From assembly GCF_003334335.1 (NCBI RefSeq), contig NZ_QOWQ01000009.1: a stretch of 64,000 nt of DNA; one strand, 5' to 3'. Made by a program: the position numbers and the translations under genes. Position 1 is the stretch's first letter. Every line of letters begins with the position of its first letter. The notes beneath the pieces are model-generated. The model had not been told where the DNA came from. It saw only the letters and a list, made by a program, of their open reading frames with translations, and ran no database searches. Shown here one piece after another: positions 2,629 to 2,816 of the stretch. The DNA comes from Escherichia coli (GTDB lineage: Bacteria > Pseudomonadota > Gammaproteobacteria > Enterobacterales > Enterobacteriaceae).

Positions 2629-2704
2629 GCGGGAATAGCTCAGTTGGTAGAGCACGACCTTGCCAAGGTCGGGGTCGCGAGTTCGAGTCTCGTTTCCCGC
2701 TCCA
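2629..2704 (+). tRNA. glyV: tRNA-Gly (anticodon GCC), copy 1
   Basis: 76-nt sequence GCGGGAATAGCTCAGTTGGTAGAGCACGACCTTGCCAAGGTCGGGGTCGCGAGTTCGAGTCTCGTTTCCCGCTCCA; cloverleaf with GCC anticodon and encoded CCA; symbol by position only. Confidence 0.95.
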
Positions 2705-2740
2705 AAATTTGAAAAGTGCTGCAAAGCACAGACCACCCAA

Positions 2741-2816
2741 GCGGGAATAGCTCAGTTGGTAGAGCACGACCTTGCCAAGGTCGGGGTCGCGAGTTCGAGT
2801 CTCGTTTCCCGCTCCA
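2741..2816 (+). tRNA. glyX: tRNA-Gly (anticodon GCC), copy 2, identical to copy 1
   Basis: Exact 76-nt repeat of copy 1 after a 36-nt spacer; only two tandem copies present; symbol by position only. Confidence 0.95.

Follow-up and report, generated by a model that had tools for sequence, protein, structure and literature searches.

A contracted two-copy allele of the glyV-glyX-glyY tRNA-Gly(GCC) array in Escherichia coli

In the 64-kb stretch of Escherichia coli DNA analysed here (the window, always meant in its whole length), the glycine tRNA array preceding datA consists of two genes, whereas K-12 MG1655 possesses three, namely glyV, glyX and glyY at NC_000913.3 4392360-4392658. Was one gene lost in this lineage, was it merged away during assembly, or did the third K-12 copy arise later? 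And does the number of units matter for the cell? A first-pass annotation of the window had credited K-12 with three genes, and the annotation of NC_000913.3 confirms them. Their product, tRNA-Gly(GCC), reads GGC and GGU, and it is textbook knowledge that tandem tRNA arrays change in copy number.

The array and its counterpart in K-12

In the entire window, ARAGORN identified exactly two tRNA genes; both encode tRNA-Gly(GCC) on the plus strand, with the anticodon gcc at position 34, and Rfam RF00005 matched the same two loci with 69.1 bits each (gathering score 29) and none further of that kind window-wide. Over 76 nt the two copies agree at every position, as they do over 78 nt when the two shared bases past the CCA end are counted in, and each is an exact 76-nt match to the K-12 genes. 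Scans of both strands of the 64 kb with each tRNA half, in which up to 3 mismatches were tolerated, returned no third, partial or degenerate copy. Hence, the first-pass description of two identical 76-nt tRNA-Gly(GCC) genes, separated by a 36-nt spacer and followed by no third copy before a datA-like region, holds in all its parts: the tRNA detectors did not find the third copy that would have contradicted it, and the region behind the array contains the DnaA boxes and the IHF consensus site expected of datA (Table 1). The array measures 188 bp in the window as against 299 bp for a three-copy array.

The surrounding genes follow the order psd, rsgA (-), orn (+), array, yjeV, queG (-), nnr, tsaE, amiB, mutL, miaA and hfq, with names drawn from the list of open reading frames and from the annotation of the near-identical genome 23CRST014. 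The orthologue of this locus in K-12 is glyV-glyX-glyY (b4163-b4165). Both occupy the same position, with orn on one side and datA and yjeV/queG on the other; the tRNA and the first spacer are identical, as are the promoter region, the terminator and datA. The window differs in having two genes rather than three, lacking one tRNA unit and with it the second spacer. Whereas K-12 reads tRNA, S1 (36 nt), tRNA, S2 (35 nt), tRNA, the alignment reduces the window to tRNA, S1, tRNA, and the sole difference is one 111-bp gap, corresponding to a 76-nt tRNA plus the 35-nt S2. Outside this gap, not a single base of the flanks deviates from MG1655, be it in the 756 nt to the left or in the 1,340 nt to the right. 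The alignment with a reference genome suggested by the first-pass annotation thus reveals precisely one missing unit between identical flanks. The second gene of the window combines two contexts, as it is preceded by S1, like glyX, and followed by the 3' flank of glyY.

Table 1. Position of the array and of its neighbouring elements in the window
Feature	Position	Strand	Details and basis
orn (oligoribonuclease), upstream neighbour of the array	1873..2418	+	ORF list; orn annotated at the same coordinates in 23CRST014; 100% identical to K-12
Putative glyVXY promoter	2544..2580	+	TTGCAG 2544-2549, 16-nt spacer, TATAAT 2566-2571, GC-rich discriminator GCGCCTCCC; by eye
tRNA-Gly(GCC) gene 1, glyV equivalent	2629..2704	+	ARAGORN, Rfam; 76/76 identical to K-12 glyV/X/Y; CCA end encoded
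Spacer S1, 36 nt	2705..2740	+	identical to the K-12 glyV-glyX spacer
tRNA-Gly(GCC) gene 2, glyX/glyY recombinant	2741..2816	+	ARAGORN, Rfam, K-12 alignment; CCA end encoded
Predicted operon terminator/attenuator	about 2839..2875	+	hairpin CCACAGCGACGCGATGCGTTATTGCTGG, then TTTTTGTTG; folding -14.3 kcal/mol, z = -2.8
datA core	2835..3084		DnaA boxes 2835-2843, 2902-2910, 3064-3072 (+), 3076-3084 (-); pattern scan
IHF consensus site in the datA core	2967-2979	-	pattern scan

The control elements around the array were placed with differing certainty. In K-12, the promoter PglyV-X-Y upstream of glyV drives the operon (PMC10950094). The putative promoter of the window is identical in sequence to that of K-12; its exact position is our reading of the sequence, as the promoter consensus scan did not call it and the -35 hexamer matches the consensus at 3 of 6 positions. 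Likewise, a simple terminator scan did not call the operon terminator, whose placement follows from folding and from the literature: the predicted hairpin, with a T-run behind it, overlaps DnaA box 1, as reported for TglyV-X-Y and box 1 of datA (PMC10950094). All datA elements are unchanged with respect to K-12, there being no mismatch in the 1,340-nt comparison.

The spacers themselves are predicted to be structured. Folding yields a 5-bp hairpin with a GCAA loop in S1 (window 2716-2729; -7.2 kcal/mol) and an equivalent 5-bp hairpin with a GUAA loop in S2 of K-12 (L001, 1049-1083). Both hairpins carry a GNRA loop, and the differences between S1 and S2 retain the structure while turning the closing pair from U-A into U-G. 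This predicted conservation may be relevant to the recognition of the precursor by RNase E.

Copy number among complete genomes

To what extent the two-copy state is shared was assessed in the 5,426 complete E. coli genomes of RefSeq. A query consisting of the flanks only, with matches taken at even steps down the similarity ranking, provided a sample of 59 informative genomes. Among these, 44 possess the 299-bp three-copy array and 14 a three-copy array with a 121-bp insertion in spacer 1; one (M8) has four copies, and none has two. In the complete set, a 388-nt two-copy query with 100-nt flanks matched 104 of the 5,426 genomes (1.9%) in one place at a coverage of at least 80%, and 60 of 60 listed rows were annotated with two tRNA-Gly genes. 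A count of 626 places at the same coverage, obtained with an 801-nt query, was discarded because it was inflated by joined pieces of insertion-bearing three-copy arrays, an inflation that disappeared (626 to 104) once the flanks were cut to 100 nt. Short arrays therefore occur in roughly 100 of 5,426 genomes (about 2%); nearly all of them are two-copy and a few one-copy, and they are spread over many lineages.

The two-copy alleles are by no means uniform, since the representatives that we fetched fall into at least five types. The type that keeps S1 comprises the window, 23CRST014, KO11FL, ST648, O157:H7 Xuzhou21, WP4-S17 and SMBL, while S2 is kept in 2013C-3277, BE311 and EC359. A variant of S1 was found in O18, a variant of S2 in PCN033 and E94, and S1 together with the 121-bp insertion in CAVP814 and XDL. 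Unrelated strains with two-copy alleles thus include ST648, O157:H7 Xuzhou21, O18 and PCN033.

Shorter and longer arrays exist as well. The laboratory K-12 derivatives MC1061 (NZ_CP195014.1 4318402-4318677) and OV2 (NZ_CP195020.1 4378550-4378825) harbour a single copy, as called from a 276-nt one-copy query that matched in one piece; the 123 genomes that this query reached at a coverage of at least 80% are a mixture of joined two-copy arrays and one-copy arrays. As MC1061 and OV2 are two units short of MG1655, contraction evidently occurs on laboratory time scales and is tolerated. At the other extreme, M8 possesses a four-copy array in which the S2 unit is duplicated, and four copies were also revealed in 1297KP and ET979, which a query of the form S1-S2-S2 matched in a single piece; three-copy pieces could be joined to full coverage by this query, so that only single-piece rows were taken as true four-copy arrays. 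In the first gene of M8 (L019, NZ_CP019953.1, 221-296), A has replaced G around tRNA position 28 (GCACGACC to GCACAACC), which would give an A-C mismatch in the anticodon stem, while its other three copies are canonical.

All these alleles share the same tRNA with the window and differ from it by whole units, that is, in the unit lost or gained, and in the 121-bp insertion, which the window lacks; this makes all of them products of one instability of the repeat. Three copies are by far the commonest state, and the array contracts and expands recurrently by whole units. The first-pass annotation had stated that tandem arrays of this kind expand and contract, which is corroborated by the occurrence of one-, two-, three- and four-copy arrays with either spacer kept. 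It had also called the case a small strain-specific difference: a copy-number change of one unit it is, but it is not unique to one strain, being shared by about 2% of genomes.

The window is identical to no record found, and the closest relative found, 23CRST014 (NZ_AP045828.1), is separated from it by 7 mismatches and 1 gap over 25 kb (99.97% identity). Among the matches listed, seven other RefSeq assemblies carry this S1-type allele between identical 100-nt flanks; they are 23CRST014, KO11FL and five more, and their sources, KO11FL apart, are humans, chicken meat, chickens and pigs. In 23CRST014, GF124.3 and KO11FL (NC_017660.1), the 388-nt locus is 100% identical to that of the window, without any difference at the array. 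The two-copy KO11FL, which we take to be an engineered derivative of E. coli W, shares its rsgA, queG and nnr protein accessions with the annotation of 23CRST014, whereas W itself (NC_017635.1) has three copies and other accessions for these three proteins. Since KO11FL derives from W yet matches the window and 23CRST014 at the array region, the DNA next to frd looks imported, perhaps via the transduction used to introduce the frd mutation.

Origin of the two-copy allele and its consequences

In this lineage, one 111-bp unit comprising a tRNA gene and S2 has very probably been deleted from the orthologue of glyV-glyX-glyY. The K-12 spacers S1 and S2 differ at only 3 positions, and an unbroken run of 93 bp, made up of 15 nt of the spacer end, the 76-nt tRNA and 2 nt beyond it, is identical in K-12 units 2 and 3. 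Because all S1-specific bases and the 3' flank of glyY are kept in the window, the crossover must lie inside this stretch, and a gap of one complete unit (76 + 35 bp) with its breakpoint in perfect identity is the typical trace left by unequal recombination or by slippage during replication. Furthermore, the alternative products of such events, namely S2-kept two-copy, one-copy and four-copy arrays, do occur. The likely cause of the deletion is either unequal homologous recombination of sister chromosomes or slippage of replication between direct repeats; we infer this from the product, and the general instability of direct repeats underlies the proposal.

Could the missing unit merely reflect an assembler that merged two identical 76-nt repeats in a truly three-copy strain? 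Copies that are identical, with spacers differing at 3 positions, could in principle be collapsed by a short-k-mer assembly, and some public assemblies are indeed aberrant at the array: NWU_4 contains a truncated tRNA fused to another copy, and Xuzhou21 has two copies as compared to three in sampled O157:H7 genomes such as ATCC 43890. The first-pass annotation had likewise advised a check for collapse. However, such an artefact should be absent from independent assemblies of close relatives, whereas 23CRST014, near-identical over 25 kb, is two-copy as well, and the seven other assemblies from different hosts share the identical allele on identical flanks, which renders a collapse very unlikely. 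In addition, the whole array is shorter than 300 bp and any read of at least 100 nt spans the 76-nt unit, while the existence of both reciprocal deletion products together with one-copy and four-copy arrays is what a real recombination hotspot predicts. Conversely, two copies might be the ancestral state kept in the window, and the third copy of K-12 a later duplication. Arrays also expand, as the four-copy arrays with a duplicated S2 unit demonstrate, but 58 of the 59 genomes sampled evenly down the similarity ranking have three copies. Moreover, S1 and S2 are distinct and both widespread (4,640 and 3,178 genomes, respectively, by spacer-specific 45- and 44-nt megablast queries, tallies that cannot be read as copy numbers, since a variant spacer interrupts the 28-nt seed), so that the three-copy arrangement has to be old. 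Two-copy alleles, in contrast, are rare (about 1.9%), mixed in the spacer that they keep and scattered among lineages, and the flanks of the window are identical to those of three-copy K-12. An ancestral two-copy array is consequently so improbable that we give it hardly any credence.

Given a deletion of one unit, what changes for the cell? The K-12 operon is transcribed as one precursor, in which RNase E cuts by direct entry, with a major site 1 nt after glyY and a cleavage that depends on the unpaired spacer upstream (PMC4191395). By analogy with this published K-12 work, the precursor of the window would be cut by RNase E in or after its spacers. As promoter region and terminator are unchanged, the remaining two genes should still be transcribed as one precursor that ends before datA, and two rather than three tRNAs are expected per transcript of the glyVXY operon. 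Provided that the genome has glyW at another locus, as K-12 does, three tRNA-Gly(GCC) genes would remain instead of four. Function is not expected to change qualitatively, and the viability of the one-copy laboratory strains suggests that dosage at glyVXY is not critical. We regard the variant as an ordinary and recurrent deletion of a repeat unit, which is probably neutral.

A more consequential reading would be that the contraction is adaptive and tunes either the supply of tRNA-Gly(GCC) or the read-through into datA and hence the timing of DnaA inactivation. Transcription that reads through from PglyV-X-Y to the IHF site of datA does regulate IHF binding, down-regulating it before initiation (PMC10950094). 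Furthermore, near-identical K-12-like backgrounds carry S1-type (23CRST014, the window) and S2-type (BE311, EC359) alleles, and the loss has therefore happened more than once among close relatives; were the adaptive reading true, this recurrence of both reciprocal alleles would be the mark of selection. Nevertheless, when the whole glyVXY operon was swapped for kan, the cell-cycle oscillation of datA transcription persisted, and a terminator deletion shifted basal levels yet left the timing of initiation as it was (PMC10950094). Since the oscillation survives this replacement, it is unlikely to make a difference how many tRNA units there are, and the kan-replacement data suggest that array length does not affect datA control. 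In the window, promoter region, terminator and datA are unchanged, so that the loss of one unit could affect the control of datA but is unlikely to do so. The low frequency of contracted alleles (about 2%) along with the expansions observed fits mutation and drift at a repeat. We thus consider adaptation a very unlikely explanation for the contraction, and equally doubt that the loss is non-neutral in the sense of shifting GGC/GGU translation or the timing of DnaA-ATP hydrolysis, with recurrence reflecting selection.

The contracted allele of this well-characterised operon is already known in that it is present and annotated in RefSeq. Even a neutral deletion may prove of practical use, as its 111-bp PCR length polymorphism is a useful strain marker. 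Besides, because the read-through transcript of the operon regulates datA, the copy-number alleles of the array could be used as naturally occurring test cases for an effect of array length on datA control.

The 121-bp insertion and minor observations

The palindromic 121-bp insertion lies where spacer 1 ends, directly in front of glyX (742-862 in L004, strain RM14721), and is present in 1,607 of the 5,426 complete genomes; its corresponding site in the window is 2740/2741. From end to end it folds into a single long, imperfect hairpin (-37.2 kcal/mol, z = -3.9), and it resembles the ERIC/IRU consensus, GAATCC..GG.A.CTTACA.AAGTA.GTGACT..GGTGAG; the tentative label ERIC-like rests on this likeness and on the whole-length hairpin. 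Megablast returned no other copies of the insertion, and our literature search found nothing on an ERIC element in a tRNA-Gly array.

At about 1942-2085 of the NWU_4 locus (L003, NZ_CP123008.1), the tRNA of the second unit is cut after nt 65 and fused to a copy without its first base, and PGAP annotates only one tRNA-Gly there. This fusion is either an aberrant recombination product or an error of assembly or polishing.

Apart from the tRNA genes, Rfam matched in the window the RpsF leader (35193-35277, +), ES239 (55076-55198, +), STnc450 (58550-58607, -) and ES036 (58687-58729, -), all of which are expected features of this chromosomal region.
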